DNA from: Parcubacteria bacterium RAAC4_OD1_1
GTDB lineage: Bacteria; Patescibacteriota; Minisyncoccia; Phycocordibacterales; UBA9973
Length of the DNA stretch: 64,000 nucleotides
Direction: 5' to 3'
Assembly (NCBI GenBank): GCA_000505065.1
Contig: AWSN01000001.1
Coordinates: 487,772-551,771, forward strand
Position 1 is the first letter of the stretch, and each line of letters opens with the position of its first letter. Both the position numbers and the translations under genes were made by a program. The notes below the pieces were generated by a model. That model was not told where the DNA came from. It ran no database searches and was given only the letters and a program-made list of their open reading frames with translations. Shown here in pieces: positions 42,110 to 63,666 of the stretch.

Positions 42110-44071
42110 ATGGATTATTTAGATTCCCTAAACGAAAAACAAAAAGAGGCGGTCCTTTATACAAATGGGCCTCTTTTAATTGTAGCAGGAGCCGGAGCAG
42201 GTAAAACAAAGACGATAACTCACAGAATCATTCATCTTATACACAAAGGGATAGATCCAGAAACTATTCTTGCTATTACTTTTACAAATAAGGCTGCCAA
42301 AGAAATGAAAGAAAGGGTAATGAATATGCTTGAAAAAAAAGAGCACGGGGATATTGTGGGGGATAATTTGGCACGCCCCGGATTTCGTCGGGGCGTGCCT
42401 TTCATTTCTACTTTTCACTCACTTGGAGTCTATATAATAAAAGAGAATGCTCACCTGATAGGCCTTACAAAACATTTCTCAATTATAGATGAAAGTGATG
42501 CTCTTTCTATTATAAAAAACATAATGAAAGAACGTGATATTGACCCAAAACAGCACGAGCCAAGAAAAATAAAAGGAATTATCTCTAGATCAAAAGGAGA
42601 TTTTATAGATGTAGAAGAATTTTCTAAAAATGTTGGTAACGCTATCCAAAGTATAGTAGCAATAATTTGGCGTGATTATGAGAGAGAACTAAAAAAGCAA
42701 AAAGCTTTAGACTTTGATGATCTCCTTATAGAATCTGTAAAAATTTTAAAAAACAACAAAAACATAAAAGAAAAATATCAAAACAAGTGGCGGTATCTTC
42801 ATATTGATGAATACCAAGACACAAACGAAGTTCAATACGAAATGGTTAAACTTTTAGTTGATAAAGAGAACAATCTTTGTGTAGTGGGGGACACAGATCA
42901 AAACATTTATTCTTGGCGTGGAGCAAATATAAAGAACATGCTTCATTTTGAGAAAGATTTTCCAGATGCAAAAATTGTTATGCTTGAGCAGAATTATCGC
43001 TCAACGAAAAACATAATAGAAGCCGCAAATAATGTTATTAAAAAAAATGAATACCGAGTTCCTAAAAATTTATTTACAGAAAACAAAGAAGGTGAATCTA
43101 TAAGCATCTGCGAAACATATGATGAGCTTACAGAAGCAAATCATATAGCTGAAACAATAGATATATTACTTAGAGAAGAAGAAGCCGAAAATATTGCAGT
43201 ACTTTATCGTGCAAACTTCCAATCAAGAGTTTTAGAAGAAGCAATGCTCGCAAAGCAAATTCCTTACCAGGTTTTAGGGGTAAAATTTTTTGAAAGAAAA
43301 GAAATAAAAGATTTGCTTTCATATATAAAAGCAAGTTTAAATAAAGAAAGTTTGATTGATATAAAAAGGATTATAAATGTCCCAACTCGCGGTATAGGCA
43401 AAACAACAATCACTAAACTTTTCGCAAATCAATTTACAGAAATTCCAAAAGCTACCCAAGAAAAAATAAATAATTTTTACAATCTCTTAGATAATATAAA
43501 TGAATTTATATCTACTCATAAAGTATCAGAATCCATCAAATATATAATAGAAAAAACAGGACTCGAAGAAAAATATAAACACGGATCCACAGATGAACAA
43601 GAAGATCTTGAAAATATGAAAGAGCTTGTATCTCTCGCCCTAAAATATGATGAATTAGAAGATGGAATTGAAAAGCTTCTAGAAGACGCATCACTTTCAA
43701 GCGATCAAGACACCCTAATATATGAGGAGGACAAGAAAGGGAACAAAAAGGGTGTAAGACTTATGACCGTCCATGCTTCAAAAGGACTGGAATTTAAGTA
43801 TGTCTTCATAACTGGCCTCGAACAAGATCTTTTTCCTCATATAAAAGATGGTAAAAAATCTAAAGAAGACAACGAAGAAGAAAGAAGACTTTTTTATGTT
43901 GCTATTACAAGAGCAAAACATAAGCTTTATTTATCTTATGCGACCCTTCGAACTATCTTTGGAATGAAACAAGTAAATTCTCCAAGTGAATTTATATATG
44001 ATATCCCCGAACATTTAACATCTTTTGAACAAAAATATTCCCAATCTGGCAATAGAGTAGTATATCTATAA
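42110..44071 (+). CDS. UvrD/PcrA-family ATP-dependent DNA helicase with in-frame GC-rich palindrome
   Basis: Walker A GAGAGKT, TFTNKAAKEM, and DEYQDTN motifs. The palindrome at 42370-42399 encodes ARPGFRRGVP, just before TFHSLG. Confidence 0.85.
   Translation: MDYLDSLNEKQKEAVLYTNGPLLIVAGAGAGKTKTITHRIIHLIHKGIDPETILAITFTNKAAKEMKERVMNMLEKKEHGDIVGDNLARPGFRRGVPFISTFHSLGVYIIKENAHLIGLTKHFSIIDESDALSIIKNIMKERDIDPKQHEPRKIKGIISRSKGDFIDVEEFSKNVGNAIQSIVAIIWRDYERELKKQKALDFDDLLIESVKILKNNKNIKEKYQNKWRYLHIDEYQDTNEVQYEMVKLLVDKENNLCVVGDTDQNIYSWRGANIKNMLHFEKDFPDAKIVMLEQNYRSTKNIIEAANNVIKKNEYRVPKNLFTENKEGESISICETYDELTEANHIAETIDILLREEEAENIAVLYRANFQSRVLEEAMLAKQIPYQVLGVKFFERKEIKDLLSYIKASLNKESLIDIKRIINVPTRGIGKTTITKLFANQFTEIPKATQEKINNFYNLLDNINEFISTHKVSESIKYIIEKTGLEEKYKHGSTDEQEDLENMKELVSLALKYDELEDGIEKLLEDASLSSDQDTLIYEEDKKGNKKGVRLMTVHASKGLEFKYVFITGLEQDLFPHIKDGKKSKEDNEEERRLFYVAITRAKHKLYLSYATLRTIFGMKQVNSPSEFIYDIPEHLTSFEQKYSQSGNRVVYL
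42370..42399. repeat. P4 GC-rich hairpin (ggcacgccccg-gatttcgtc-ggggcgtgcc) in frame inside uvrD
   Basis: A 10-bp perfect stem, the only such GC-rich patch in the gene. Confidence 0.7.
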
Positions 44072-44088: not shown

Positions 44089-44859
44089 ACTGTCCAGGCC
44101 TTGCCTGGACAATATTTAATATATATAATAGATAATATGTCTATTAGACCTATCAAATTCGCACCAAATGAAAATTACCACATATACAATCGTGGTGTAA
44201 ATAAAATGAATATTTTTATAGATCATAATGATTATGATCGTTTTATGAAATTAATGTATGTATCAAATTCTACTACCAATAAAAAATTTACCGACATAGA
44301 AACAAGTCCAGGCAAGGCCTGGACACTAGAAAAAGATAGTGATTTGGTAGATATTGTTAGTTATTGTCTTATGCCTAATCATTTTCATTTTATTCTTAGA
44401 GAAAAAATTGAAAATGGCATAAGTATATTTATGCACAGACTCTCTACTTCTTACTCTATGTATTTTAATAAAAAATACGATCGTAATGGAGCACTTTTCC
44501 AAGGAAAATTTAAGTCAGAACATATAAATAATGACAATTATTTTAAATATCTATTTTCATATATTCACTTAAATCCAATAAAACTTATACAAAAAGACTG
44601 GAAAGAAATTGGAATAAAAAATATTGATGTAGCACAAAAATATCTTTTAAAATATCCCTATTCTAGTTTTTTGGATATAATAGAAAAAATTAACAGAATA
44701 GAGTCAAAAATAATAAATAAACTAAGTATTCCTAATTATTTTGGTTCTCCTGAAAATTTTAAAAAGGAAATTTTTGATTGGTTGATAGTTAAAATATGAA
44801 TATTAATAAAAATAAATTTAATAGTGTTAGGAATACTGTCCAGGCAAGGCCTGGACAGT
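44089..44859 (+). mobile_element. RAYT paralog 2 unit bounded by P2 palindromes
   Basis: P2 copies lie at 44089-44111, 44306-44324 (internal, encoding SPGKAWT) and 44835-44859. Confidence 0.55.
44136..44799 (+). CDS. IS200-like HuH tyrosine transposase, REP-associated (RAYT-like), paralog 2 (ORF track starts at TTG 44101)
   Basis: YHIYNRGV near the N-terminus, HuH in CLMPNHFHFIL, then YIHLNPIK and YPYSSF. P2 copies lie upstream, internally and downstream. Confidence 0.7.
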
Positions 44860-45767
44860 GGAAATATAAAGCCAAAAAGCATCTGGGGCAAAACTTTTTA
44901 AAATCTAAAGAAGCAATTAAAACTATATGTGATGCTGGAAAAGTAGAAAAAGAAGATATTATCTTGGAAATTGGCCCCGGGAAAGGGGTTCTCACTGAGG
45001 AGTTGCTAAAAAGAGGGGCAAAAATTCTAGCAATTGAAAAAGACAATGATTTAATTAATTTTTTAATAGAAAAATTTGAATCTTTTCTTCCGTCCACACC
45101 GGGTATGGACATAGATACAAAAAGGTTAAATATAATAAATGAAGATATTTTGGATTTTGATATTTCAAAATATGGACTTTTAGATAAAAAATACAAAATA
45201 ATTGCAAATATTCCATATAATATAACAGGGGCAATAATAAAGAAATTCTTAAGTGAGATCAAAAATAAGCCTATTTTAATGGCTATTTTGGTGCAAAAAG
45301 AGGTTGCGGAAAGAATTGTTGCAAAAAACAGAAAAATAAATAAGCAAAAAACAGAAGCTGTCCAGGCCTTGCCTGGACAGTCCAGGCCTTGCCTGGACAG
45401 TGGGGGGAAGGAGAGTATATTGTCATTGAGTGTGAAAGCTTATGGAGATCCTAAATATATAATGAAAGTATCAAAAAAATATTTCTCACCAGCCCCAAAA
45501 GTGGACTCCGCGATAATACTTATAGATAATATTTCCGATAAAAATTTTAAAAACAATGATGAGGAAAAAACCTTTTTTGATCTAGTTCATGCTGGATTTA
45601 GTCATAAAAGAAAATTATTTATAAAAAACATAGAAAATTTAGATTACCAAAAAGAAAAAATTAAAAAAATGTTTGAAATATTAGAAATTGATAAAAAAAT
45701 AAGAGCAGAAGATATACCTTTTTATAAATGGATAGAAATGAAAGATTTTTTAACTACAAAAAACTAG
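44796..45767 (+). CDS. rsmA: 16S rRNA (adenine1518/1519-N6)-dimethyltransferase RsmA/KsgA carrying three in-frame P2 palindromes
   Basis: LGQNFL and EIGPGKGVLT motifs. The start ATG overlaps the RAYT stop (ATGA). One P2 copy sits in the N-terminal extension (TVQARPGQW), and a tandem pair sits mid-gene (AVQALPGQSRPCLDSGG). Confidence 0.8.
   Translation: MNINKNKFNSVRNTVQARPGQWKYKAKKHLGQNFLKSKEAIKTICDAGKVEKEDIILEIGPGKGVLTEELLKRGAKILAIEKDNDLINFLIEKFESFLPSTPGMDIDTKRLNIINEDILDFDISKYGLLDKKYKIIANIPYNITGAIIKKFLSEIKNKPILMAILVQKEVAERIVAKNRKINKQKTEAVQALPGQSRPCLDSGGKESILSLSVKAYGDPKYIMKVSKKYFSPAPKVDSAIILIDNISDKNFKNNDEEKTFFDLVHAGFSHKRKLFIKNIENLDYQKEKIKKMFEILEIDKKIRAEDIPFYKWIEMKDFLTTKN
45358..45407. repeat. 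Tandem double P2 palindrome inside rsmA
   Basis: ctgtccaggccttgcctggacag is followed immediately by tccaggccttgcctggacagtgggggg. Confidence 0.9.
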
Positions 45768-46705: not shown

Positions 46706-49591
46706 ATGATAAATAAATTTATCAAAAACTACATACTGATCTCCTTAATTGTTTTAATGCAAATTATCACGCCATTAACATCAAGAGCTAGTGTTAATTT
46801 AAATTGGGACAATCCAAATAGTGGTAGAAATCCATATAAATTTAAATTATCTGACTATTTAAATTCAAATATGATGATGCAGGTTGTTGGTTGTACTGGA
46901 GTAGTAGATAAAGTAACACTTTCTATTGGTGATCTTGCTAGTGGAGATCTAGAAAGTCTACAAGACAGATGGACTAGCATTAAAAGAAAAACTGAAGAAG
47001 TAAAAAAATTAGTTATTGAAACAAATAAAGCATTGAGTGTAGCAATGGTACCCAAAGATCCTGGACCAGCCTTAACAGATATAGCTACAGACAGAATAAA
47101 TGAAACAGTTAATACCAAAAACGAAGAACTTCAAAATGCAGTACAAAAACTAAAAGATCAAAATAAATCTGTAAAGATGAGAGAGGAGTGCCTTAATGGT
47201 ATCGCTTATACTCTAGCAAAAAACCAACTTGTAGCAATGACAAAAAGTACTATGAACTGGGTAGCAACGGGGTTTGATGGTGATCCAATGTATGTAAGAA
47301 ATATGCAATTATTTGTCGGAGATATTGAGAGTAGAATAATGAATGCTGAATTAGAATATTTTCAAAATGCAAATCCAAGCAGATACCCATATGGTAGAGA
47401 CTTCGCTAGGTATTACTACGGAGCATACAATTCTGAAAAAAATTTTAGAGATTCAATGTCTCAAACATTAACTAGGCACCTAACTAATGGAAAATCAATC
47501 GAAGATTATACTTATGATTTTTCTGCTGGTGGGTGGGATGCTTGGCTTGGACTTACCCAAGAATCACAAAACAATCCTATAGGATATGCGATAGAAACAA
47601 GTAATTACATATCTAATAAACAACAAGAAGAAATTGAAAATACAAAACAAGAACTAACTCAAAATAATGGGATTATTTCTCAAAGGGTTTGCAAGGTGAC
47701 AAGTGCCACTAAAAAACTAGCTCAAAAAGAAATAAACAAACGAGAAGCTAATCAATACGTTATAGATGCTCAGAATAAAGTTGATGAGGCAGAATATTAT
47801 TATGAGCAAGCAGGTGGTAATGGAAATGACACAGAAGAACTCCAAGATGCAGCAGAAATACTAGCAAATGCAAGAATAGATCTTGAAAAAGCTTTGGCTT
47901 ACCAAGCATCGCTCGATGCAGAAAGTACTGATGCTGCAGAAGGTTGTGATGAATGGGAAATTGTTACTCCAGGAAGTTTTATACAAGATAAAATAAGCAC
48001 ATATCTAAATACACCAGAAACACAATTAGAAATGGCTGACACAATCAATGATGTCTTAAATGTTGTATTTGCAAAATTAATAGATAAATTAAGAATTGAT
48101 GGACTCACCGGGCTTGGATATAGCGCTGTATCAAATAGTAATTATGACTGGCCAACTTCAGTAAATATATCTGGATATGATAGTTCTGGAAACCAGTATG
48201 GTGGAGAAGGAATAAGTACTAGAAATTTTGATTTAACAAAAGATCTAGGTAATACTTACAATCATTCAGATACAACAAATTTAGGAACATGGGATGCTTC
48301 CATAAATAAAGCTATCAAAATAAAAGACAATACAACGACATCCCTTGTTCCTGGAAAGGGTCAAACAAATAGTTATTATACTGTCACAGTAGCTGGTAAA
48401 ACAAAACTTTTTGACGATGATTTAGGTTGGGAAGTTGGAGATAGAGCATTCTTTAATGGTATCTCTTGGCAAAATTGGAAAAAAGATCAAACTAGCCCAA
48501 TAATAAACAGAGGGATAATACAAATACAGCAAGATTACTTAGTTGTAGCAAAAGAACTTTTAAAAATATTACCAGGTGTAATGCCAGCACTTGGTGAACT
48601 TGATTATTGTATACCAGGACCAAATCCAAATTGGGAAATAAATATGAGTGACAACAGTGTAGCTTTCTTTGATTTTGTATCTGAATTAAAAACCACATAT
48701 AAACAAGCAGATGATTGGTTTGAAAAAGATTCTGTTGACATAACATGGGCAGGGGAAGACGCAAATAGTGATGCTTATAAAAATTATCGTAGTATATTTG
48801 CAAACTCTTATTTATCTGGATGGAAAGATAATTGGACTAGCTGGAGCTTAGCTATGAATACAAAAATTATGAATTATATAGATGTTCTTGCTAATGGCGA
48901 AGACTGGACAGGAGAAAAAGGGGTAGCTGAAGCAGAAGAAGAAATAGGAGAATTGATAAGTAATATTGTTGAAAGTTTTTCAATGTTCAAAGATGAATAT
49001 GGTAAAACAATAAGTGATACTTATGGAACGATTCAACAAGAATATTTCTTGAATGAAAAGACAAACACCAAAACTCCAAATAATGCTTATATACCTATGG
49101 CAAAAGAAGGTCTTACTTTAACTAAAAAAATTACAGATTATAATAATGAGGTTTCAGATTCAATACAAGATCTTAAAAATACAATGGGTGAAACAGATTC
49201 AACGATATCTAAATTAGAAAAAATAAGAAGTGAGGTTGGAAAAATAATAAAAGCAGCTCAAGATAGAAGAGATGAAACTATAACAATAGCATTAAATGCA
49301 AAAGGAGAAAATTTTACTACAAATACTGCCTATAAAATTAAATACCAGGTATGTCTAAATGAAGAAAATATAGATTATCTAAAAGACTATGATCTTACAC
49401 AAGAAGAAGAAAATAGGTGTGATGACAGAATAGATAATGATTTCGATGGACTCATAGACTCAAAAGACCCAGATTGTTCAGGATCAGGAAACACCAACAC
49501 AGAAAGAGACAGAAGAAGTGGTGGTAATAGTATTTATAATGATTACTATGAAAGTGATCAACCTTATATAAACACAGATCGAGGATATTAA
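46706..49591 (+). CDS. Large secreted hypothetical protein with C-terminal Cys-bracketed DxDxDG calcium-binding-like loop
   Basis: 961 aa with a signal peptide. The C-terminal motif CDDRIDNDFDGLIDSKDPDC follows a coiled-coil region. Confidence 0.5.
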   Translation: MINKFIKNYILISLIVLMQIITPLTSRASVNLNWDNPNSGRNPYKFKLSDYLNSNMMMQVVGCTGVVDKVTLSIGDLASGDLESLQDRWTSIKRKTEEVKKLVIETNKALSVAMVPKDPGPALTDIATDRINETVNTKNEELQNAVQKLKDQNKSVKMREECLNGIAYTLAKNQLVAMTKSTMNWVATGFDGDPMYVRNMQLFVGDIESRIMNAELEYFQNANPSRYPYGRDFARYYYGAYNSEKNFRDSMSQTLTRHLTNGKSIEDYTYDFSAGGWDAWLGLTQESQNNPIGYAIETSNYISNKQQEEIENTKQELTQNNGIISQRVCKVTSATKKLAQKEINKREANQYVIDAQNKVDEAEYYYEQAGGNGNDTEELQDAAEILANARIDLEKALAYQASLDAESTDAAEGCDEWEIVTPGSFIQDKISTYLNTPETQLEMADTINDVLNVVFAKLIDKLRIDGLTGLGYSAVSNSNYDWPTSVNISGYDSSGNQYGGEGISTRNFDLTKDLGNTYNHSDTTNLGTWDASINKAIKIKDNTTTSLVPGKGQTNSYYTVTVAGKTKLFDDDLGWEVGDRAFFNGISWQNWKKDQTSPIINRGIIQIQQDYLVVAKELLKILPGVMPALGELDYCIPGPNPNWEINMSDNSVAFFDFVSELKTTYKQADDWFEKDSVDITWAGEDANSDAYKNYRSIFANSYLSGWKDNWTSWSLAMNTKIMNYIDVLANGEDWTGEKGVAEAEEEIGELISNIVESFSMFKDEYGKTISDTYGTIQQEYFLNEKTNTKTPNNAYIPMAKEGLTLTKKITDYNNEVSDSIQDLKNTMGETDSTISKLEKIRSEVGKIIKAAQDRRDETITIALNAKGENFTTNTAYKIKYQVCLNEENIDYLKDYDLTQEEENRCDDRIDNDFDGLIDSKDPDCSGSGNTNTERDRRSGGNSIYNDYYESDQPYINTDRGY

Positions 49592-49605
49592 TTAATAAAT
49601 TATTT

Positions 49606-51696
49606 ATGGAAAACAAACCTAAAAAAAGTAAAGCGTTCATAATAACATTTATACTAGTACTAATAATACTTTTGGTGGGTTATTTATTATTTAAAAATAA
49701 AAATGGAATCTTTCAAATAAATAGTACAGAAAATACAAACAAAACTTTTGAATCTCTTTCGGAAACAAAAGAAGTAAAAGATTTGGGATATATAGACGTA
49801 GATACTGCAAATGAATGTATCTCTATTTCTGTAATTGCTGAAGAGGATATTTTTAAAGGTGAAGCAGTGTATGTATCCGGAGTAGGAGCAAACAAAGAAC
49901 CATTAGCAAAGAAAGCTATAGCAAATGATGAAACAAAATCAAAAGTAATTGGTGTCGCTATGGCAAATATTTTAGCTGGTACTACAGGAATAATAGCAAA
50001 TGATTGTATTGTGACAGGATTAAATACAGACAGAAATGAGGAGACTGTATGGCAAATAGGAGATATCCTCTACTTAAGTGATACAATATCAGGAGCTCTT
50101 ACAAAAAACCCTCCATCAAACAAAATAATAGTAGGAGTAGTAAAAACAGTTAATGCAATTGATGGATCTATTAAAGTGGGAGGAGCTGGAACAAATATTT
50201 TTGACTTATCGCAAGCTATTAAAGATGCAGGGATAGACACCAGCAAAGGAATAGTTTACGCAATAGAAAAATTGAAAAAACTGTTTGGAAATATTTTTGG
50301 ATATGAATACAATGGAGGAGAGTTTGATGCTAATGGACTAGGTGAGTGGGTTTGGGATGAAGAATATGGTGGATTTGTTTGGAAATGGAAAGGTGGTACA
50401 GGCGGATTTACTGGGCCAGATTTTCCAGATTTTGGATTTGAAAAAGCTTGTAGTAATGAAAACGATGATGACGGGGACGGATTTACAGATATAAATGATC
50501 CACAATGTCATATCGATGGAATTATTACAAATGAATATGTGCCTACACATTATTCAGAAGAGATAAATGCCATAAATCCAAATTTATATGCTTGCAGCAA
50601 TACACTTGATGATGATAACGATGAATTAATAGATATAAATGATCCACAATGTCATATCGATGGAATTATTACAAACGAATATGTGCCTACACATTATTCA
50701 GAAGAAATAAATGCTCCAAATTCAGATATAATACCGACACCAGATAGTGTTTGTGAAAATGGTATGTCCAACTATCCACTTTGTACAATTAACGAAAATG
50801 GAAATTGTGGAAATGGTGCGATAAACCCACCAATATGTACAGAATTTAGTAATGAAGATGAAACAGATCCAACAGGTGAAAATACTGAAACAAATATGTG
50901 TGCAGTTTTTGATGAACATCCTCTTGAATTTACAGAGAGTGAAAAAGCACAGCTTGCAGAACTTCTTCGAGAATTTTATTTAATTGCTCCTACTCTCAAA
51001 ACAGAAGATGATATAGATGCTCTATATACTGAAATAAATAGATATGAGCAATTAATAGATCAGTCAAAAAAACTTACCAAACAGTGTTATCTTGAATCTG
51101 CATATAGTGCACAATGGGAATATAATGATCCAACATGGACATATGCAGGGGCTGGATCATTCTGTGCAAGAAATCCAGAATACTGTAGTAAAAAGGGTGT
51201 CACGAGTCAAACAAATTGTGATCTTTATGGATGCGCAGATGGAGTAGATGTATTTAATGATAAATACACAGGCCCTACAAAAAGAGGAGGGAACCCTTGG
51301 TTTAGGTCAATAACAATAGGTGGATATGTAGATAACACAAAATACAGCACACCAAAGATAAATACTGACGTAAATTATGTTATGAAAAGTCACGGCAATG
51401 ATAGACCAGAAAGCTCAAAACATTCACAAGAAGTACTAGAGAGTGGGTGGTGGACTTATGCAACGCCTATTTTTGGTGTGTTTACAACATTTAAAGCTTT
51501 TGATGAAAAAAATATGGTGCCTGATTATTATTTTACAATACCAAATACAATATATACTCCACTAATTACAAAACTACCTGCATCTCAAAATGGTAGAAAC
51601 TTTCAACAAGATTGGGAATTCTATTTTGATTTTGATTTAAACAAGGTTATGTTGGAAAGACTTAAAGAGTTTGAGTTGTTACTTTATATCTGGTAA
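49606..51696 (+). CDS. Hypothetical membrane-anchored extracellular protein with duplicated DDDGDG...DPQC calcium-binding-like repeats
   Basis: 696 aa with an N-terminal TM helix. A ~55-aa repeat occurs twice, encoded by a near-identical ~85-bp direct repeat. Confidence 0.5.
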   Translation: MENKPKKSKAFIITFILVLIILLVGYLLFKNKNGIFQINSTENTNKTFESLSETKEVKDLGYIDVDTANECISISVIAEEDIFKGEAVYVSGVGANKEPLAKKAIANDETKSKVIGVAMANILAGTTGIIANDCIVTGLNTDRNEETVWQIGDILYLSDTISGALTKNPPSNKIIVGVVKTVNAIDGSIKVGGAGTNIFDLSQAIKDAGIDTSKGIVYAIEKLKKLFGNIFGYEYNGGEFDANGLGEWVWDEEYGGFVWKWKGGTGGFTGPDFPDFGFEKACSNENDDDGDGFTDINDPQCHIDGIITNEYVPTHYSEEINAINPNLYACSNTLDDDNDELIDINDPQCHIDGIITNEYVPTHYSEEINAPNSDIIPTPDSVCENGMSNYPLCTINENGNCGNGAINPPICTEFSNEDETDPTGENTETNMCAVFDEHPLEFTESEKAQLAELLREFYLIAPTLKTEDDIDALYTEINRYEQLIDQSKKLTKQCYLESAYSAQWEYNDPTWTYAGAGSFCARNPEYCSKKGVTSQTNCDLYGCADGVDVFNDKYTGPTKRGGNPWFRSITIGGYVDNTKYSTPKINTDVNYVMKSHGNDRPESSKHSQEVLESGWWTYATPIFGVFTTFKAFDEKNMVPDYYFTIPNTIYTPLITKLPASQNGRNFQQDWEFYFDFDLNKVMLERLKEFELLLYIW

Positions 51697-51779: not shown

Positions 51780-54464
51780 ATGAAGAAGTTTTTTTCCTAC
51801 ATTTTAATATCAATAGTTATGGTGGCCAACCTCCTCGCGCCTTTTAGTATGAAATTGGGGAGTAATTATTTGCCAAGAATTGAAAAAAATGAAGCGAGTG
51901 CAGATGCAAAGCAAATAACAATGACAACAACAGCGAAGGGAACAACAATAAACGCAACAGTAACAGCTGTATTTACGGGTGAAGCTAATCAAATAAATTT
52001 TGCTTCTGTTTTTCTATATGATCAATACCCATATGATGAAAACAATAAACCAGCTGAAATAGATTCTATTGATAGTAGAGATGTTTTTGGAGAATTTAAA
52101 ATTTTAAACAATGATGAGGATATAACCAAAACAGCAACCGTGTCATTTGACAATCTAACTCCTGAAAAAACATATTATTTGGTAGCAGTAGGTGGTACAA
52201 AAAGTATCTTTAAAGCTTTAATTAATTTAAACACACTAAGATTTAATAAACTTTTTGAGTCAACAAGTAAAACTGGTTATACAAATGCAATACCACAAGA
52301 AACAGGAATGAAAGACTCCCAAGTTTTAATCCAAGGATCTGGAACAGCATCTGCTTTTAATGCAGACGCGGCTCTACCTTCTTGTAAGGCAACAGATGCA
52401 ACTACTTGGGTTCGAGGTTGTGTAGTTAGACTTATTTATTATATTATTTTTGTGCCAACATCTTTTTTCTTTGCATTAACTGGAATGTTTCTTGATTCAA
52501 CATTTGCTTATACAGTAGATAGTGCTTCATATCAAACTCAATTCATAACCCAAAGTTGGGGAATAGTTAGAGACCTTTGTAATATGTTCTTTATATTTGT
52601 ACTTCTATATATTGCTTTTTCAACAATACTCGAAATACATGGATTTAATACAAAAAAGACAATTATTAATGTAATAATCATTGGTCTTTTAATAAATTTC
52701 AGTTTATTTGCTGTGAGAATTATGGTGGATGCATCAAACATACTAGCTAGGGTTTTCTATAACTCAGATACAATAAAAATTACTAACGTCTCAGCCTTAA
52801 ATATCAGTAATATGGTAGATAAACCAAACGAAAATGGAGTAATTTCTATCTCGGCTGCTATTGTAAACAAAATAAACCCACAAGTTTTAATATTAAAAGC
52901 AAATGGCAATGAACAAGCTGGAATGGGTGGTTTCTCAACTATCTCTTATGTTGTTATTGTGTTACTTGCTTCTATTGTAAATATAGTGGGCATAATAGTA
53001 TTCCTATCTACAGGATTACTTTTTGTGACAAGAGTCATAGGGCTTTGGATAGCGATGATACTTTCTCCACTTGCATTTTTTACCTATATAATTCCATCTT
53101 GGAGTAAACAAAAAATGATAGGATGGGAAAACTGGTGGCCAGACACTCTAAAAATGGCTTTCCTTGCTCCTATTTTTATTTTCTTTATGTATATAATTCT
53201 TCAATTTATGGATACAGGACTTGGGCTTTTTGATGCAGCAGAAGAAGAAGGAATGACATTAATATTAGCAATAGTTATTCCTTTCATATTTATAATGATA
53301 CTTCTCTGGCAAGCGAAAAAAATTGCAAGCGATATGTCTGGAGAAATGGGACAATCTATAACTAAAGGTGTCGCTGCTGTCGGTGGCCTTGCTCTCGGTG
53401 GGGCAGCTTTGGGAGTAGCAGGATTGGGTAGAAAGTTTATAGGTGGAACAATGGCAAAAGCCTCTAGTGGAAATACTGCAACTCAAAAATATCTGGCAGC
53501 ACAAGGAGACCCTAATGCTATGGCTAAATTAAGCAAATGGGAACAAATGAAAGGTAGAATGGGGGCAAGAGTTGGTATGGATAAAGTTTACGGGAGGGTT
53601 GGAACAGATGCAAATGGAAATAAAGTTATTACCGGAGGGGTTGGAAAATATGTAAACGATAAACAAAAACATGTTGGTAATATAGATCATGCGAGACATG
53701 AAATGGATGAAACTAAAAAAGCAGCTGGGCTTACTGGGGTTACAAACTTAACCGGGGAAGATGAGAAGAAGCTTGAATCAACTTTTGCAAAAAATAAAAG
53801 ATCTGAAGTTGAAGCTAATGTAAGAAGAGGAACGGATAATAAAAAAGATATTGCATTAAAAGATAATGATGGTAATGCACTATTAGATGGACAGGGAAAT
53901 GAAATTAAGGGTGAAGATGCTTGGAAAAAAGAAAAGAGAAGTGAAATTGAAACTAATTACATAAATGATCCTAATAATAATATAAAAAGTGTAGAAGATC
54001 TAACAGATAAAGATAAGAAAAATATTGAAAATGAATTAAATAAACAATTTAACCTTGTTCTTAAAAATACAACAGAAAAAGAAATTAAAAGTTTATTTGA
54101 AGATATTAAGAAAGAGGCAAATACAAAAGTTGGTTCTCTTGATAGAGTAACAGCAACAGCAAACAAAAGAAGCTTTGACATAAGAAACATTTCAGATGTT
54201 AATAAAACAGACAAAAGAGATGGTTTTATGACAAAAACAGCTGCATTTTTGGCTTCTACTGTCGCACTTGGTGTGAGGACAGGATTTAAAACTTCAGGAA
54301 TTAACATTGGAACAAGTCAAAGGGATTTTATTTTGGATTTAAAAAATACAATTACTGAAGCATTTAAAAATGTAAAAATTGAAGTCCCTAAAGCTTCTGG
54401 TGGAGGAGATCATGGGGGTGGGGGACACGGAGGAGGCGATCACGGAGGTGGGGGACACCATTAA
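51780..54464 (+). CDS. Large polytopic membrane protein, possible VirB6/TrbL-like T4SS channel component, with Gly/His-rich C-terminal tail
   Basis: The signal peptide and ectodomain are followed by at least 6 TM helices, a coiled C-terminal domain, and a GGGDHGGGGHGGGDHGGGGHH tail. Confidence 0.35.
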   Translation: MKKFFSYILISIVMVANLLAPFSMKLGSNYLPRIEKNEASADAKQITMTTTAKGTTINATVTAVFTGEANQINFASVFLYDQYPYDENNKPAEIDSIDSRDVFGEFKILNNDEDITKTATVSFDNLTPEKTYYLVAVGGTKSIFKALINLNTLRFNKLFESTSKTGYTNAIPQETGMKDSQVLIQGSGTASAFNADAALPSCKATDATTWVRGCVVRLIYYIIFVPTSFFFALTGMFLDSTFAYTVDSASYQTQFITQSWGIVRDLCNMFFIFVLLYIAFSTILEIHGFNTKKTIINVIIIGLLINFSLFAVRIMVDASNILARVFYNSDTIKITNVSALNISNMVDKPNENGVISISAAIVNKINPQVLILKANGNEQAGMGGFSTISYVVIVLLASIVNIVGIIVFLSTGLLFVTRVIGLWIAMILSPLAFFTYIIPSWSKQKMIGWENWWPDTLKMAFLAPIFIFFMYIILQFMDTGLGLFDAAEEEGMTLILAIVIPFIFIMILLWQAKKIASDMSGEMGQSITKGVAAVGGLALGGAALGVAGLGRKFIGGTMAKASSGNTATQKYLAAQGDPNAMAKLSKWEQMKGRMGARVGMDKVYGRVGTDANGNKVITGGVGKYVNDKQKHVGNIDHARHEMDETKKAAGLTGVTNLTGEDEKKLESTFAKNKRSEVEANVRRGTDNKKDIALKDNDGNALLDGQGNEIKGEDAWKKEKRSEIETNYINDPNNNIKSVEDLTDKDKKNIENELNKQFNLVLKNTTEKEIKSLFEDIKKEANTKVGSLDRVTATANKRSFDIRNISDVNKTDKRDGFMTKTAAFLASTVALGVRTGFKTSGINIGTSQRDFILDLKNTITEAFKNVKIEVPKASGGGDHGGGGHGGGDHGGGGHH

Positions 54465-55497: not shown

Positions 55498-56013
55498 ATG
55501 CAATTTAGAGTTCCACAATTTATAGACATAGAAGACAAACTTTTTGGACCGTTTACGTTTCGGCAATTTGTATATCTCACTGGTGGAGCAGGGGGAGTTT
55601 TTGTACTATATAAAATTTTACCATTTTGGCTAGCAATTATTTTTATAATACCCGTCATTTCACTAACTCTACTTCTCACTTTTTATAAAATTAATGAGAA
55701 ACCATTTATATATTACCTAGAAGCAGGTCTTGGTTATTTTATATCAAACAAATTATATCTCTGGAAACAAAGAAAAGTTAAAAAAAATACAGAGGAAATA
55801 AATACTTCTGTTAATATTACTTCTGTAATCCCAATGTCAACAGGGAGTAATAGGCTTGGTGATTTATCTTTCAAATTAGATACAGAAGGAGAAAATACAA
55901 ATATCTCGGCTTATAAACAAATGAAAAAAGATAATGCTCAAAAAATAGATCTAAACATTACAGAAGAAGATATAGTAAAAGATATTTCAAATTATGATAC
56001 AATAAACAAATAA
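55498..56013 (+). CDS. Small two-TM membrane protein, VirB3-like (position immediately upstream of VirB4-like genes)
   Basis: A hairpin of two TM helices (VYLTGGAGGVFVLYKILPFWLAIIFIIPVISLTLLL) sits immediately upstream of the VirB4-like ORFs. Confidence 0.35.
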   Translation: MQFRVPQFIDIEDKLFGPFTFRQFVYLTGGAGGVFVLYKILPFWLAIIFIIPVISLTLLLTFYKINEKPFIYYLEAGLGYFISNKLYLWKQRKVKKNTEEINTSVNITSVIPMSTGSNRLGDLSFKLDTEGENTNISAYKQMKKDNAQKIDLNITEEDIVKDISNYDTINK

Positions 56014-56019
56014 ACAAAT

Positions 56020-56667
56020 ATGGCAATCAACGCAAAAAGTTCACAAGATTTTGTACCAATAAAAGAAGTGAGAGATGGGGTTATCATTCTTAAAGATGGA
56101 GGCCTTCGTTCTGTTCTTATTGCTTCATCTATAAATTTGTCACTTAAATCAAACGATGAACAACTTGCAATAATAAATCAGTTTCAATCATTCTTAAATG
56201 GTCTTGATTTTCAAACACAAATTGTCGTCCAATCAAGAAGACTAGACATAAGACCATATTTAATGACACTTGAAGAAAGATTTAAAGAGCAAGTAGAGCC
56301 ACTTCTTAAAATTCAAACCAAAGAATACATAGAGTTTATAACTCGGTTTACTGATGAAGTAAACATAATGAGAAAAACTTTCTTTGTTGTTGTACCTTAT
56401 AATTCAAACATTATAAAATCTAGTGAAAAAATAGTGGATAAAATTATAGGTGGAGGATCATCAGCACCCAAAAATCCAAACAAAAGTATAGATACAGCTT
56501 CGTTTGAGGAAAAGAGAACTCAGCTAGACCAAAGAGTAAATGTTATAATTTCTGAATTAAGTAGACTTGGTATAAGATGTACAGAACTCAAATCAGATGA
56601 AGTAATAGAGCTATTTTATAAAACTTTCAATCCTGGAGATATTAGTAGTGGAATAAAATTAGAATAA
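56020..56667 (+). CDS. VirB4/TrbE/CagE N-terminal domain-like protein (first half of a split VirB4)
   Basis: DGVIILKDGGLRSVLIASSINLSLKSNDEQLAIINQFQSFL aligns with the VirB4 N-terminal region DHIVLLEDGSIMAMFHLHGLPFELAPNEERNARIEALNMLL, which I recalled from A. tumefaciens VirB4. Confidence 0.45.
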   Translation: MAINAKSSQDFVPIKEVRDGVIILKDGGLRSVLIASSINLSLKSNDEQLAIINQFQSFLNGLDFQTQIVVQSRRLDIRPYLMTLEERFKEQVEPLLKIQTKEYIEFITRFTDEVNIMRKTFFVVVPYNSNIIKSSEKIVDKIIGGGSSAPKNPNKSIDTASFEEKRTQLDQRVNVIISELSRLGIRCTELKSDEVIELFYKTFNPGDISSGIKLE

Positions 56668-56674
56668 TATTATT

Positions 56675-58504
56675 ATGGGAATTTTTTCATCATTATTTAA
56701 TAAAAAAAACGATAATACAAAGAGTAGCAAAACTCCGATCCTTCCAGATGAGGTCTATAAAGCTGCTGAACTCGAACTCCAAGACATAGTAGCCCCATCA
56801 GCGCTTCAAATAACCCCCAAATCATTAAATTTAGGAGATAAGATAGCCAGAACATTTTTTGTTATCTCATATCCTAGATACCTTACAGATAATTGGTTTT
56901 CTCCGGTTATAAACCTAGATAAAGTTTTTGATGTTTCTATTTTTATACATCCTATTGAAACCGCTGAAATATTAAGATCTTTCCAAAAGAAAGTTGCTGA
57001 AGTGCAAAGTCAGATATCTATCAGGGAATCAAAAGGTTTAGTTCGAGACCCAATGCTAGACACAGCCTATCATGACTTAGAAGAATTGAGGGACAACCTT
57101 ATGCAAGCCCAAGAAAGGATGTTTAATGTGGGCCTTTATATAACGGTCTATGCAGATAATGAAAATGATTTATTTAAAATAGAAAATGAAATTAAATCTA
57201 TTTTGGAATCCAAGCTTGTTTATTTAAAACCTGCTCTTTTCCAACAAGTAGAAGGTTTTAAAAGTGTAATTCCACTCGGTACAGATATGCTTGCTGTTCA
57301 TCAAAAATTAAACACTGAGCCACTTTCTAGTATTTTTCCATTTGTATCTTTTGATCTTACTTCAGATAATGGAATACTTTATGGTGTAAACAGACATAAT
57401 TCTAGTTTGATTATTTTTGACAGATTTTCACTTCCAAACTATAACTCTATTACTTTTGCTACTTCTGGTGCTGGTAAATCATATGCCACTAAACTAGAAA
57501 TTCTTAGAACTTTAATGTTTGACACAGAAGTAATAGTTATAGACCCAGAAAGAGAGTATGAATACCTTGCAGAAGCAGCAGGAGGAAGGTATTTTAATAT
57601 TGCACTTTCTTCAGAACACCATATAAATCCTTTTGATCTACCAATTCCTACCAAAGACGAAACGGGAGCTGATGTTCTTCGAGGGAACATTATAAACCTT
57701 GTCGGTCTTTTTAGAATAATGCTAGGAGGTTTAACACCTGAAGAAGATTCAATAATAGACAGGGCAATAACTGAAACATATGCTTTAAAAGACATTACAG
57801 CAGAATCAAATTTCTCAAATATCGAGCCACCATTATTATCTGATTTTGAAATGGTCCTAGCTGGTATGGAGGGAAGTGAATCATTAATGCAAAGACTCAC
57901 CAAATACACCAAAGGATCTTGGGCATCTTTCTTAAACCAACCATCAAATATAAACATAAATCATAAGTTTATAGTTTTTTCTGTGAGAGATATGGAAGAT
58001 GAGCTCAAACCAATTGCAATGTATATTGTTACACATTATATTTGGAATTCTGTCAGAAAAAATATAAAGAAAAGACTACTTGTGGTAGATGAAGCCTGGT
58101 GGATGATGAAATCAGAAGATACAGCTTCCTTCTTATATTCTATAGCTAAAAGAGGCCGTAAATACTATTTAGGGCTAGCTACAATTACTCAGGATGTGGG
58201 TGACTTTATGAAAAGTAATTATGGTATTCCTATTATTACAAACTCTTCAATACAACTCCTACTAAAACAATCTCCTTCAACAATAGACGCTCTTCAAAAT
58301 ACTTTTAATCTCACAGATGAAGAAAAGTATCTACTTCTTGAAGCAAACACAGGGGAAGGAATATTTTTTGCTGGACTCAAACACGTAGCTGTAAAAGTAA
58401 TCTCTTCTTATACTGAGGACCAAATTATAACATCAGACCCATCTCAAATACTCTCAATTCAAAAAGCCAAAGAAGAGTTTCTTGCCTCAGGTGGCAACAA
58501 ATAA
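56675..58504 (+). CDS. VirB4-like type IV secretion ATPase, C-terminal ATPase part
   Basis: Walker A TSGAGKSY, Walker B LLVVDEAWWMM, and a downstream ATITQDVGDF motif. Confidence 0.6.
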   Translation: MGIFSSLFNKKNDNTKSSKTPILPDEVYKAAELELQDIVAPSALQITPKSLNLGDKIARTFFVISYPRYLTDNWFSPVINLDKVFDVSIFIHPIETAEILRSFQKKVAEVQSQISIRESKGLVRDPMLDTAYHDLEELRDNLMQAQERMFNVGLYITVYADNENDLFKIENEIKSILESKLVYLKPALFQQVEGFKSVIPLGTDMLAVHQKLNTEPLSSIFPFVSFDLTSDNGILYGVNRHNSSLIIFDRFSLPNYNSITFATSGAGKSYATKLEILRTLMFDTEVIVIDPEREYEYLAEAAGGRYFNIALSSEHHINPFDLPIPTKDETGADVLRGNIINLVGLFRIMLGGLTPEEDSIIDRAITETYALKDITAESNFSNIEPPLLSDFEMVLAGMEGSESLMQRLTKYTKGSWASFLNQPSNININHKFIVFSVRDMEDELKPIAMYIVTHYIWNSVRKNIKKRLLVVDEAWWMMKSEDTASFLYSIAKRGRKYYLGLATITQDVGDFMKSNYGIPIITNSSIQLLLKQSPSTIDALQNTFNLTDEEKYLLLEANTGEGIFFAGLKHVAVKVISSYTEDQIITSDPSQILSIQKAKEEFLASGGNK

Positions 58505-58548: not shown

Positions 58549-59544
58549 ATGAGCCTAAAGACAAAAATTTTTTTATTAATTTCTATTATTGTTGGTGTTT
58601 TTACCATATCAAATTTTTCTAACGCAGAACAAGAAATTATGGTTCTTGAAAGTGATATAAATGTAGAAACTATTCCAGAAAACCCAGAACCATATCAAGA
58701 TATCACTATTATACTCAAAAGTTATGCTACTGATTTAAACAAAGCCAAAATAGAGTGGCTTATGGGTTCAAGTGTGGTCCTTTCTGGAATAGGAAAAACC
58801 AAATACTCTTTTACGGCACCAGGTCCAAATGAAACAACAACTTTTAGTGTTTCTATAACTCCACAAAATTCAATATCTAATATCTTAAAAAAAATATCAA
58901 TAAACCCATCAGAAATAGAGCTTATATGGGAAGCAGTAGATAGCTACACCCCTCCTTTCTATAAAGGAAAATCTTTTGCGAGTAGAGAGGGGAAAATAAA
59001 AGTTGTCGCAATCCCAAACACCAATACTATAAAATCTGGAAAGGGGAGTGTCTCATATACTTGGAAATATGGTGAGGGGGAGAACACAGACCAAAATGCT
59101 TCTGGCTATGGTAAGGATTATTTTATAATTAAAAACAAAGCTTTAAATACAAAAGAATATGTAAAAATTATAGCTTCTTCTGTTGATGGTAAATATAATG
59201 CAACAAAGAAAATTGAAATTCCACTGGTAAATTCAAAAATACTTTTTTACAAAAAATCTCCAACAGAAGGAGTGCTTTATAGTGAAGCAATAAAAGATGA
59301 TTCTTATTTAGAGGAAGATGAAATCACCCTCGTCGCAGAACCATACTTTTTTTCTATAGAAAATCCAAAATCAATTGTTTATAACTGGAAAGTAAACAAT
59401 AAAAGCATAGATACACCAAGTAAAAAAACTGAAGTGACTCTTCGTCCCGCTTCTCGAGGTGGGTACGCCACAATAGGGCTCACAATGGAAGATATGAGTG
59501 CCCTTTTTCAAAAAGTTACTAGTAGTATAAAAATAAATTTATAA
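58549..59544 (+). CDS. Secreted hypothetical protein
   Basis: 331 aa with a signal peptide. Confidence 0.45.
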   Translation: MSLKTKIFLLISIIVGVFTISNFSNAEQEIMVLESDINVETIPENPEPYQDITIILKSYATDLNKAKIEWLMGSSVVLSGIGKTKYSFTAPGPNETTTFSVSITPQNSISNILKKISINPSEIELIWEAVDSYTPPFYKGKSFASREGKIKVVAIPNTNTIKSGKGSVSYTWKYGEGENTDQNASGYGKDYFIIKNKALNTKEYVKIIASSVDGKYNATKKIEIPLVNSKILFYKKSPTEGVLYSEAIKDDSYLEEDEITLVAEPYFFSIENPKSIVYNWKVNNKSIDTPSKKTEVTLRPASRGGYATIGLTMEDMSALFQKVTSSIKINL

Positions 59545-59545
59545 A

Positions 59546-60955
59546 ATGAATAAAAAAATATTTTTTAAAATTCTAATATCATCAATTATCGTATTAAATA
59601 CAATAATGCCATTTAATATATCTGTTGCAAATAGTAAAAATATTGAAATAACAGTAAATCCAGATGATACTAATAATTTAGGAATAAATATTGATGGAGT
59701 TTTTAGGGTAAATGAAGAAATTTCTTCTGGTATGGTTATATATTCTATAAGTAAAAACCCTGATGATTATGCAACAAAAACAGTATTTAATGAGGAACTT
59801 AATACTAATGGTAAAGAAAGTAGTGGAATATGGTCATATAGTTTTGGACAAAAATTATATCAATACTCAAATGGTGGAAATGATCTTTTGGGTGTAGTTA
59901 AAGGGGATAAATACTATGCTACCGTAATCATAATAACTTCAGCAACATCACAACATTCTGAATATAAATATGTAAGCAATACAGTTTTGTTTACAGCTGG
60001 AACTCCATCTGAAACTCCTCCACTAGGTGGAGGTCAAATCGAAGATGAACCAATAGACATAGAAACAAGAAATAATATTGGAAATGTAAATTTAAATGAA
60101 TACCAACCTCTTGCTCCAATTCCAGGATTTACAGATGAAACAGTAAGTACTAACAACATAGGCCAATACTTCAATGTTATATTTAAATTTGCAATTGGAC
60201 TTGCTGGGGCACTTGCTGTGATAATGATAATAATAGGTGGAATTCAATATATGGGAGATGAATCAATTTTTGGAAAAACTGAGGCTAAAAAAAGAATTTT
60301 TTCTGCTATACTTGGGCTTCTTATTGCACTTGGCTCGTGGGCAATACTAAACACAATAGATCCAAATTTACTAGGAACTAAAGGATTAAAAGTAAAACAA
60401 GTTAGTTTTGAAATAGTTAACCTTCCAGATGCTGGTGATAATACTATAGACCCAGATTTTAACACTGGTTCTGGTAGTTATTCTGTAGGAACTGTTTCTC
60501 CTAGTGTCGCAAATGCAGTAACAAAATTAAAACAAGGATGGGAAATTGATGCTTTTAGAGTTTACCCTAGCAACAACAGAATGGTAATTTCATTAAAAAA
60601 AGGAAGTGAGGTAGATAATACAAATCTAATAACAATATCTCCAGGAGAAAATGGATATGCTGAAATTGGAAAAGGTGTCGTTAGGGATGGTAAAACACCA
60701 AAGGGTGAATGGAAAATATTGAGCATAAGAAAATCAAAAGATAATCAACCTGTATACAGTGCCGAAGGGGCAAATATGGGAGCAACTTTTTGGTTATTAA
60801 GTCCTACAAATAATGGAGAAAGGGGGATAGGGATGCATGGTAATAAAAATGGGACCTTGGGCGAAACAGCAGGATGTTTAAGATTAACAAATGCAGACCT
60901 ATTAGCATTATTACCATATGTAAAAACAGGAATATCTGTTAATATTAAAGATTAA
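59546..60955 (+). CDS. Secreted protein with internal VirB2/TrbC pilin-like two-helix hairpin and C-terminal L,D-transpeptidase (YkuD)-like domain
   Basis: The hydrophobic pair is FKFAIGLAGALAVIMIIIGGIQY...RIFSAILGLLIALGSWAILN. The C-terminal motif is GMHGNKNGTLGETAGCLRL. Confidence 0.45.
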   Translation: MNKKIFFKILISSIIVLNTIMPFNISVANSKNIEITVNPDDTNNLGINIDGVFRVNEEISSGMVIYSISKNPDDYATKTVFNEELNTNGKESSGIWSYSFGQKLYQYSNGGNDLLGVVKGDKYYATVIIITSATSQHSEYKYVSNTVLFTAGTPSETPPLGGGQIEDEPIDIETRNNIGNVNLNEYQPLAPIPGFTDETVSTNNIGQYFNVIFKFAIGLAGALAVIMIIIGGIQYMGDESIFGKTEAKKRIFSAILGLLIALGSWAILNTIDPNLLGTKGLKVKQVSFEIVNLPDAGDNTIDPDFNTGSGSYSVGTVSPSVANAVTKLKQGWEIDAFRVYPSNNRMVISLKKGSEVDNTNLITISPGENGYAEIGKGVVRDGKTPKGEWKILSIRKSKDNQPVYSAEGANMGATFWLLSPTNNGERGIGMHGNKNGTLGETAGCLRLTNADLLALLPYVKTGISVNIKD

Positions 60956-62429: not shown

Positions 62430-62459
62430 TAAAACACCCGAATGGGTGTTTTATTTTTT
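62430..62459. terminator. Bidirectional terminator between gene 60959-62419 and jag
   Basis: The sequence is aaaacacccgaatgggtgttttatttttt. Confidence 0.65.
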
Positions 62460-62925
62460 AAATATTATCATTTCCTATATATTTTATTACAACTCTTCTA
62501 TTGGCTCCAAAACCCTCTGATTCAGTTTTTATATCTTTAGCTCCTTCCAAATACATATGTATTATTTTTCTTTCATATGCAGGCATTGGATCAACCTCAA
62601 TATTGCTTTTAAAGTACCTAGCACGTTCTGCCATCATATGTGCTATTGTTTTTAAATTATCAAACTTTTTCTTATTATATCCATTTATATCTATAAATAA
62701 ACCTTGAAAATCCTCATCATCTTTTTCTTTATCTACAATTTTTTGTACTATATGATTAAGTGATTTTAATGTTTCACCTTCTCTCCCTATCATAAATTTT
62801 GAATCTGGTGTCTCAATCATACACCAAAGTATTCCATTGTCTTCTGAAAACTCACAACTAGTTAAAGAACAAGCTGTATGTGTAAAAATTTTCTCAATTA
62901 TATCTTTTATTTTATCTTTATCCAT
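62458..62925 (-). CDS. jag: Jag/KhpB-like RNA-binding protein (KH + R3H)
   Basis: The R3H motif ERKIIHMYLE...GANRRVVIKY is present, in the position after yidC. Confidence 0.7.
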   Translation of the reverse strand: MDKDKIKDIIEKIFTHTACSLTSCEFSEDNGILWCMIETPDSKFMIGREGETLKSLNHIVQKIVDKEKDDEDFQGLFIDINGYNKKKFDNLKTIAHMMAERARYFKSNIEVDPMPAYERKIIHMYLEGAKDIKTESEGFGANRRVVIKYIGNDNI

Positions 62926-62937
62926 AATATATATTTA

Positions 62938-63666
62938 TTAACTATTTTTTAGTTTTCGACGAATATGCCACTCCTGTACAATAGTAAATACATTACTTGT
63001 AATCCAATACAATGCGACCGCCGCAGATGTCTGGTACGCAACAAAAGCAATAAATACAGGGAGTATGTATTTTATATTGGTTTGCATACTGTTTGAAAGT
63101 GCTTCCTGAAAATCTGGTTGTTTTTTTTCTTTTTCCTCGTTTGGTTCTTTATTTTTTAGTGGAATAGAAAGATAGCCTTGAACAAACTGACTGAGCCCAG
63201 TTAATATTGCAAGGGGAATATTCTTACTACTCATTTCTATTAAATTTAAAAATTTGGTATGACTTATTTCTGGAATATTTATAAATGAATAAATCAAGCT
63301 CTGATCTACTGTTATTCCTTTATAAAAAACATAATAAAGAGCAAAAATAACTGGCAATTGAATAAGTATTACCAAACACCCAGAGAATGGGTTTGTTCCA
63401 TATTTTTTATATAAATCAAAAGTTTTTTTAGCTTGTTCTTCTTTATTTGGATAATCTTTTTTAATTTGTTTTAATTCTGGCTCCATCTTTTTCATAAGAA
63501 TTTGACTCCTTATAGACTTTCTTGTAAGGGGGGCGAGAATTAACTTTACAATAATAGTGAGTAATATAATAGCGAAACCAATATCACCAAAAGTGACCTT
63601 ATCCATAATAAAGATAAGGGCATTATATATAGGTTGATAAAAAATTGTAGTCCAAAATGTATGCAT
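62938..63666 (-). CDS. yidC: Membrane protein insertase YidC (short form)
   Basis: 242 aa with the motif KYGTNPFSGCLVILIQLPVIFALY, adjacent to yidD. Confidence 0.8.
   Translation of the reverse strand: MHTFWTTIFYQPIYNALIFIMDKVTFGDIGFAIILLTIIVKLILAPLTRKSIRSQILMKKMEPELKQIKKDYPNKEEQAKKTFDLYKKYGTNPFSGCLVILIQLPVIFALYYVFYKGITVDQSLIYSFINIPEISHTKFLNLIEMSSKNIPLAILTGLSQFVQGYLSIPLKNKEPNEEKEKKQPDFQEALSNSMQTNIKYILPVFIAFVAYQTSAAVALYWITSNVFTIVQEWHIRRKLKNS

Follow-up and report, generated by a model that had tools for sequence, protein, structure and literature searches.

A TrsD-like gene and a VirB4-type ATPase gene that very probably share the content of one VirB4 in a chromosomal type IV secretion operon of Patescibacteria

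Two reading frames and their homologies

The window analyzed here is a 64-kb stretch (64,000 nucleotides [nt]) of contig AWSN01000001.1 from Parcubacteria bacterium RAAC4_OD1_1. Between approximately 46.7 and 62.4 kb, it carries a tight plus-strand operon of a type IV secretion system (T4SS), and inside this operon lies a pair of open reading frames (ORFs) that resemble consecutive parts of VirB4. We refer to them as ORF215 and ORF609 after their lengths in amino acids (aa). They and the sequence between them are as follows.

56020 to 56667, plus strand: ORF215, TrsD-like ("TraC-like," PF26593), 215 aa, ATG start; corresponds to approximately the first 200 residues of a monoderm VirB4
56668 to 56674, plus strand: spacer "tattatt," 7 nt, without a slippery motif and without a Shine-Dalgarno-like sequence
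56675 to 58504, plus strand: ORF609, VirB4-type T4SS ATPase, 609 aa, ATG start; distal part of the VirB4 N-terminal region, followed by the P-loop ATPase domain at the C terminus

Both an ORF scan and inspection of the raw sequence bear out the original prediction that two ORFs in different frames occupy these positions. ORF215 ends at the TAA at 56665 to 56667, and ORF609 is read in the +1 frame with respect to ORF215. The distance between them, given earlier as 8 bp, depends on how it is counted: the spacer itself is 7 nt, while counting from the last base of the stop codon to the first base of the ATG gives 8. Together, the two ORFs encode exactly 824 aa, previously estimated at about 824 aa.

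On the basis of its sequence, ORF609 is a VirB4-type T4SS ATPase, for which ATP hydrolysis and hexamer formation are predicted. As originally noticed, the ATPase motifs are in this second ORF, with Walker A (SGAGKSY) near aa 264 to 270 and Walker B (LLVVDEAW) near aa 476 to 483, and the Pfam families P-loop_TraG (E = 3.7e-25), AAA_10, and DUF87 all match above their cutoffs. The crystallized C-terminal domain of Thermoanaerobacter VirB4 (PDB 4AG5) matches aa 230 to 586 (E = 3e-39). Residues 446 to 735 of TrwK match aa 257 to 553 (E = 3e-6), an offset that places the P-loop of ORF609 approximately 190 residues nearer to the N terminus than in a full-length VirB4. ORF609 aa 29 to 571 correspond to positions 182 to 732 of the 752-position NCBIfam model NF045971 (conju_CD1110; 380 bits against a cutoff of 325), and aa 33 to 567 correspond to residues 213 to 757 of the 797-aa VirB4 of Clostridium botulinum plasmid pCDC3875 (E = 2e-90). 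ORF609 does not contain the complete N-terminal region of an approximately 800-aa VirB4; profile positions 1 to 181 are missing from it and are supplied by ORF215. Its surroundings are those of a T4SS cluster, including the gene immediately upstream and a pilin-domain gene further downstream.

55498 to 56013, plus strand: small VirB3-like membrane protein of the PrgI/TcpE family, 171 aa; matches Pfam PrgI above its cutoff (E = 1.9e-08)
59546 to 60955, plus strand: pilin-YkuD protein, 469 aa; VirB2-like T4SS pilin domain and YkuD L,D-transpeptidase domain, in the T4SS operon

The PrgI gene ends 6 nt before ORF215, a position that is kept in relatives (loci L001 to L004) and on Firmicutes plasmids.

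Sequence comparison indicates that ORF215 is homologous to the N-terminal ∼200 residues of full-length VirB4 from monoderms, in agreement with the earlier suggestion that it resembles the VirB4 N-terminal domain. Three NCBIfam models support this assignment. Positions 2 to 129 of conju_CD1110 correspond to ORF215 aa 9 to 135 (E = 5e-7), the VirB4 model from mycoplasma integrative and conjugative elements matches with an E value of 1.5e-12, and the TrsD/TraD model NF041427 matches with an E value of 3e-7. The last match reaches 30 bits, far under the cutoff of 200, which makes ORF215 a distant relative of TrsD that falls outside the NF041427 subfamily. Furthermore, hhalign aligned the ORF215 family profile with residues 23 to 197 of the pCDC3875 VirB4 (probability, 80%; E = 1.5e-5), tblastn matches of ORF215 were found inside annotated VirB4 genes, and a fused protein from Colwellbacteria (described below) points in the same direction.

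The Pfam results for ORF215 depended on the source. A local Pfam-A scan gave no match even at an E value of ≤10, unlike the precomputed Pfam assignment, which places a sequence identical to ORF215 in PF26593.2 ("TraC-like"), the family to which relatives also belong; this is a discrepancy of tool or library version. The family that the local scan left unnamed was resolved by the NCBIfam models. Structural support for the homology to the VirB4 N terminus is weak. A PDB sequence profile search using the ORF215 family returned chance matches only and no VirB4.

The gene boundary in relatives and in distant homologs

Of 80 species-level genome loci retrieved, 78 hold both genes, and we measured the junction in these. 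The homologs of ORF215 and ORF609 are separate genes in every one of them (78/78), which answers the comparison with orthologous clusters that had been proposed for this locus. The two genes also adjoin each other in all 78 relatives, and adjacency of TrsD-like and ATPase genes is near universal in Paceibacteria. The spacer, on the other hand, varies considerably: 4 loci have a −4-nt spacer (an ATGA overlap), 56 have 1 to 9 nt, 8 have 10 to 99 nt, and 10 have 119 to 288 nt. No fused ortholog was found among the 78 related genomes, and fused forms are distant only (38% and 55% identity for the two parts, in Colwellbacteria). Clade-wide amino acid identity is 72 to 76% for ORF215, whose alignment has 97 invariant columns, and 86 to 89% for ORF609. 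Such conservation points to strong purifying selection on each of the halves.

In one locus (L032:2338-2633; JAIOQC010000005.1), the virB4 frame itself is seemingly broken near the 5′ end, with the best match starting from query residue 103 and an ORF of 494 aa. Either a genuine frameshift or a mistake in the assembly of this metagenome-assembled genome (MAG) could account for the interruption.

Ten of the 78 relatives carry a dispersed palindromic element, whose terminal inverted repeats are TCCCGTTAGAAG...CTTCTAACGGGA, inserted precisely at the virB4 start. The shorter copies (∼119 to 130 nt; L012, L019, L024, L038, L045, L049, and L070; e.g., L038:4655-4785) fold as a long hairpin (−35 kcal/mol; z = −4.5). 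In all of these except the degenerate copy in L012, both sides of the element carry the first 5 nt of virB4 (ATGGG, ATGAG, or ATGAA), a duplication that regenerates the virB4 start codon. The longer copies (∼283 to 288 nt; L014, L046, and L068; e.g., L014:4649-4931) enclose an 84-aa GIY-YIG nuclease ORF (Pfam E = 7e-17), and a clear duplication was not seen around them. Further copies of the element occur elsewhere in those same loci, while a search of the window found none. We found no paper that joins GIY-YIG, Patescibacteria, and an inverted repeat. Since a mobile-element insert of 119 to 288 nt precedes it in these 10 relatives, the ATPase gene must be capable of starting translation by itself.

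We searched 1.8 billion representative proteins exhaustively with a profile and obtained 2,781 clusters at an E value of ≤0.001. The best 150 of these are nearly all stand-alone proteins of 114 to 443 aa, with two long exceptions. The first (P0327) is a 797-aa fused protein from three Candidatus Colwellbacteria MAGs, in which aa 1 to 212 correspond to ORF215 (38% identity) and aa 230 to 796 correspond to ORF609 (55% identity). The second (P0346) is an 898-aa fused protein of the same architecture. Such natural fusions show that ORF215-type and ORF609-type proteins are functionally linked. An AlphaFold2 model of the 797-aa fusion, built from an unpaired alignment, was too poor for a fold search or for interface analysis (predicted local distance difference test, 52; predicted template modeling score, 0.30), and some terminal residues are misplaced in the MAFFT alignment (A2). 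Using tblastn against plasmids, we found both states. The split state is present on Clostridium perfringens pJFP838A and Geobacillus pGspE55-1 as PrgI, a TrsD-like protein (312 to 318 aa), and a DUF87 ATPase (636 to 641 aa), and the fused state is represented by the 797-aa VirB4 of C. botulinum pCDC3875.

Two genes for one VirB4

Taken together, these data make us confident that ORF215 and ORF609 are two real, separately translated genes of a chromosomal T4SS operon that jointly carry the content of one VirB4. The original prediction had left four options open, namely, a genuinely bipartite VirB4, a programmed frameshift, a pseudogene in progress, and an assembly error. The first of these is supported by the way in which the two ORFs tile a full-length VirB4, by the homology of both ORFs, by the natural fusions, and by the conservation of the arrangement in all 78 relatives. 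The comparative data reject the other three.

Noncovalent binding of the TrsD-like protein to the 609-aa ATPase is probable and would complete the N-terminal module of the ATPase. In cryo-electron microscopy of R388 TrwK, from a solved diderm system, the N-terminal module reportedly docks VirB4 to VirB3 and to the membrane. By analogy with R388, the docking partner of the module in the present system would be PrgI, encoded just upstream. As the spacer is very short (in relatives, typically 1 to 9 nt or an ATGA overlap), the two genes are likely cotranscribed and probably translationally coupled, which would provide roughly matched amounts of the two halves. We lean toward the view that the TrsD-like protein is the detached VirB3- and membrane-docking module of VirB4, which would assemble with the ATPase in trans. 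If this is true, TrsD would gain a function, and the essential T4SS of Patescibacteria would be powered by a VirB4 in two pieces, with stoichiometry or assembly open to separate control. In that case, the natural fusions known from Colwellbacteria and Clostridia would serve as Rosetta-stone evidence of such a complex.

Alternatively, ORF215 may descend from the VirB4 N terminus and yet have become an independent accessory or regulatory T4SS subunit that does not complete the ATPase in trans. We find this unlikely, although several observations are compatible with it: according to Quinonero-Coronel et al. 2025 (Microb Genom, PMC12102498), TrsD has no assigned function and its homologs in Gracilibacteria lack an association with virB4, many family members have extra C-terminal extensions and reach 300 to 440 aa, and ORF215 is less conserved than ORF609. 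However, the segment missing from ORF609 is exactly the one that ORF215 supplies, the natural fusions preserve the canonical order of the two parts and join them by a short linker, and the adjacency of the two genes is near universal in Paceibacteria.

A programmed +1 ribosomal frameshift at GAA-TAA, yielding a single 824-aa VirB4, has very little to recommend it. The +1 frame of ORF609 and the stop codon that ends ORF215 superficially resemble prfB-type shifting, but a TAG at 56660 to 56662 in frame 2 leaves the two frames jointly open across 56663 to 56667 only (5 nt). This interval contains no slippery sequence and no codon able to re-pair (GAA is unable to re-pair on AAU), and there is no Shine-Dalgarno-like stimulator upstream of the junction. 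A slippery heptamer, which the original prediction advised looking for, is not present at the junction. Moreover, the frame of the ATPase gene relative to the TrsD-like gene is 0, 1, or 2 in 21, 36, and 21 of the 78 loci, respectively, with spacers of −4 to 288 nt, and relatives keep the opening codons of the ATPase gene (ATG GGA AT.) as a start.

It is similarly hard to maintain that an intact virB4 was split by a recent frameshift mutation (a pseudogene in progress) or by an indel arising in sequencing or assembly. The 824 aa of the two ORFs combined is a typical VirB4 length, and the junction lies within an A/T-rich stretch, both of which would suit such an event. Nevertheless, the same split is found in 78/78 related genomes from independent assemblies, and the gene pair is also present on Firmicutes plasmids. 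Among the scored homologs (at least 7,870 for ORF215 and 8,000 for ORF609), the best 120 for each ORF are stand-alone proteins of matching size: 215 to 219 aa and 71 to 100% identical for ORF215, from Nomurabacteria/Paceibacteria, and 588 to 623 aa and 86 to 100% identical for ORF609. The strong purifying selection on both halves is also at odds with decay. An indel artifact is therefore excluded by the comparative data. Neither a frameshift signal nor a recent mutation nor an assembly indel could give rise to a variable spacer and a variable frame together with separation in 78/78 genomes.

Finally, a spurious resemblance between ORF215 and an unrelated VirB4 would accord with the lack of a significant local Pfam match and with a PDB profile search devoid of VirB4, but it is scarcely credible in view of the three matching NCBIfam VirB4/TrsD models (E = 1.5e-12 to 5e-7), the hhalign match to a bona fide VirB4, the tblastn matches within VirB4 genes, the natural fusions, and the precomputed "TraC-like" Pfam family.

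These results matter mainly for annotation: a frameshift or pseudogene flag at this junction would be wrong, and TrsD-like, VirB4 N-terminal-domain protein is the appropriate name for the 215-aa "hypothetical protein."

The surrounding operon and known systems

The remaining features of the operon and its flanks are listed below.

44101 to 44799, plus strand: IS200-like Y1 transposase-domain ORF, 232 aa, TTG start; Pfam E = 6e-9
44796 to 45767: ksgA, flanking the operon
within 46706 to 51696, plus strand: large operon genes of 961 and 696 aa, no Pfam family
51780 to 54464, plus strand: apparent multi-pass membrane protein, 894 aa, with a Gly/His-rich tail (GGGDHGGGGHGGGDHGGGGHH)
58549 to 59544, plus strand: operon gene of 331 aa, no Pfam family
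62458 to 63666, minus strand: jag/R3H and yidC, flanking the operon on the other side

The synteny of the operon is common to relatives, and proteins similar in size to the 961-, 696-, and 331-aa products hold equivalent positions in L001 to L004. None of these three had a Pfam match at E values of ≤0.001 to 0.01, and the 331-aa product, the only one of the three scanned against NCBIfam, matched nothing below an E value of 0.09. The 894-aa protein, for which the Pfam and NCBIfam scans likewise returned nothing, might be a candidate VirB6-like component. In the 469-aa protein, Pfam places T4SS_pilin at aa 203 to 271 (E = 2e-6) and YkuD at aa 339 to 467 (E = 1e-9), and NCBIfam adds an Mbov_0395 pilin-like match (E = 2e-5). 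It is unusual for a T4SS operon to encode a pilin joined to an enzyme that cross-links peptidoglycan. Outside the operon, the Y1 transposase ORF sits between a UvrD-type helicase gene (42110 to 44071) and ksgA. The cumulative GC skew of the window has its minimum at ∼26 to 28 kb and rises thereafter, and the origin-proximal markers yidC/jag are located at 62.4 to 63.7 kb.

In domain content and order, the gene pair matches the full-length monoderm VirB4 (the CD1110 family and pCDC3875) and the Colwellbacteria fusion. The difference is that the pCDC3875 VirB4 and the Colwellbacteria protein are each one polypeptide, whereas the window has two genes that tile the same content. The TrsD/TraD and TrsE/TraE proteins of the Gram-positive conjugation systems of the pGO1/pSK41 type likewise comprise a small homolog of the VirB4 N terminus encoded directly upstream of a VirB4-type ATPase of ∼610 to 670 aa, and on pGO1, trsD presumably lies directly beside trsE. 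The C. perfringens and Geobacillus plasmids have an analogous order of PrgI, a hypothetical protein, and a DUF87 ATPase. VirB3-VirB4 fusions, which exist in some conjugative systems, are a similar case of shifting gene boundaries among the cytoplasmic and inner-membrane parts of a T4SS. They are, however, fusions rather than fissions and concern another boundary, and PrgI is a separate gene in the window. No VirB3-VirB4 fusion has been found in Patescibacteria (PMC12102498).

The closest known counterpart is the T4SS of Patescibacteria themselves. TrsD, which is found among MPF-FATA systems of the pGO1 subclass, is described as remotely homologous to the VirB4 N terminus and as usually adjoining virB4 (PMC12102498). 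No other T4SS component is as abundant in Patescibacteria: TrsD has 2,272 homologs there, 1,664 of them associated with VirB4 (PMC12102498). The main text of Guglielmini et al. 2014 (PMC4027160) does not mention TrsD, and the statement of TrsD/VirB4 homology thus comes from PMC12102498 only. The same study names ksgA, dnaA, and rnpA as frequent neighbors of virB4, lists TrsD as essential in Southlakia epibionticum ML1, and reports no relaxase or coupling protein nearby; these systems are thought to be nonconjugative (PMC12102498). Wang et al. 2023 (PMC10633639) showed that epibiotic growth requires this T4SS. The two-gene TrsD and VirB4 arrangement is thus the published norm for Patescibacteria, already known there and also from some Gram-positive plasmids, and the role of the detached N-terminal piece is a question for the whole family and not for this locus alone. 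The components and their order in the window (PrgI/VirB3-like, TrsD-like, VirB4, and VirB2-like pilin) match those of the patescibacterial system, and the cluster is likewise chromosomal and adjoins ksgA and yidC/jag, genes that are usually near the origin. The genome belongs to the class in which the TrsD and VirB4 arrangement is commonest (Paceibacteria/Nomurabacteria). With no substantive difference from that system, the locus is one more instance of the essential, nonconjugative T4SS of Patescibacteria.
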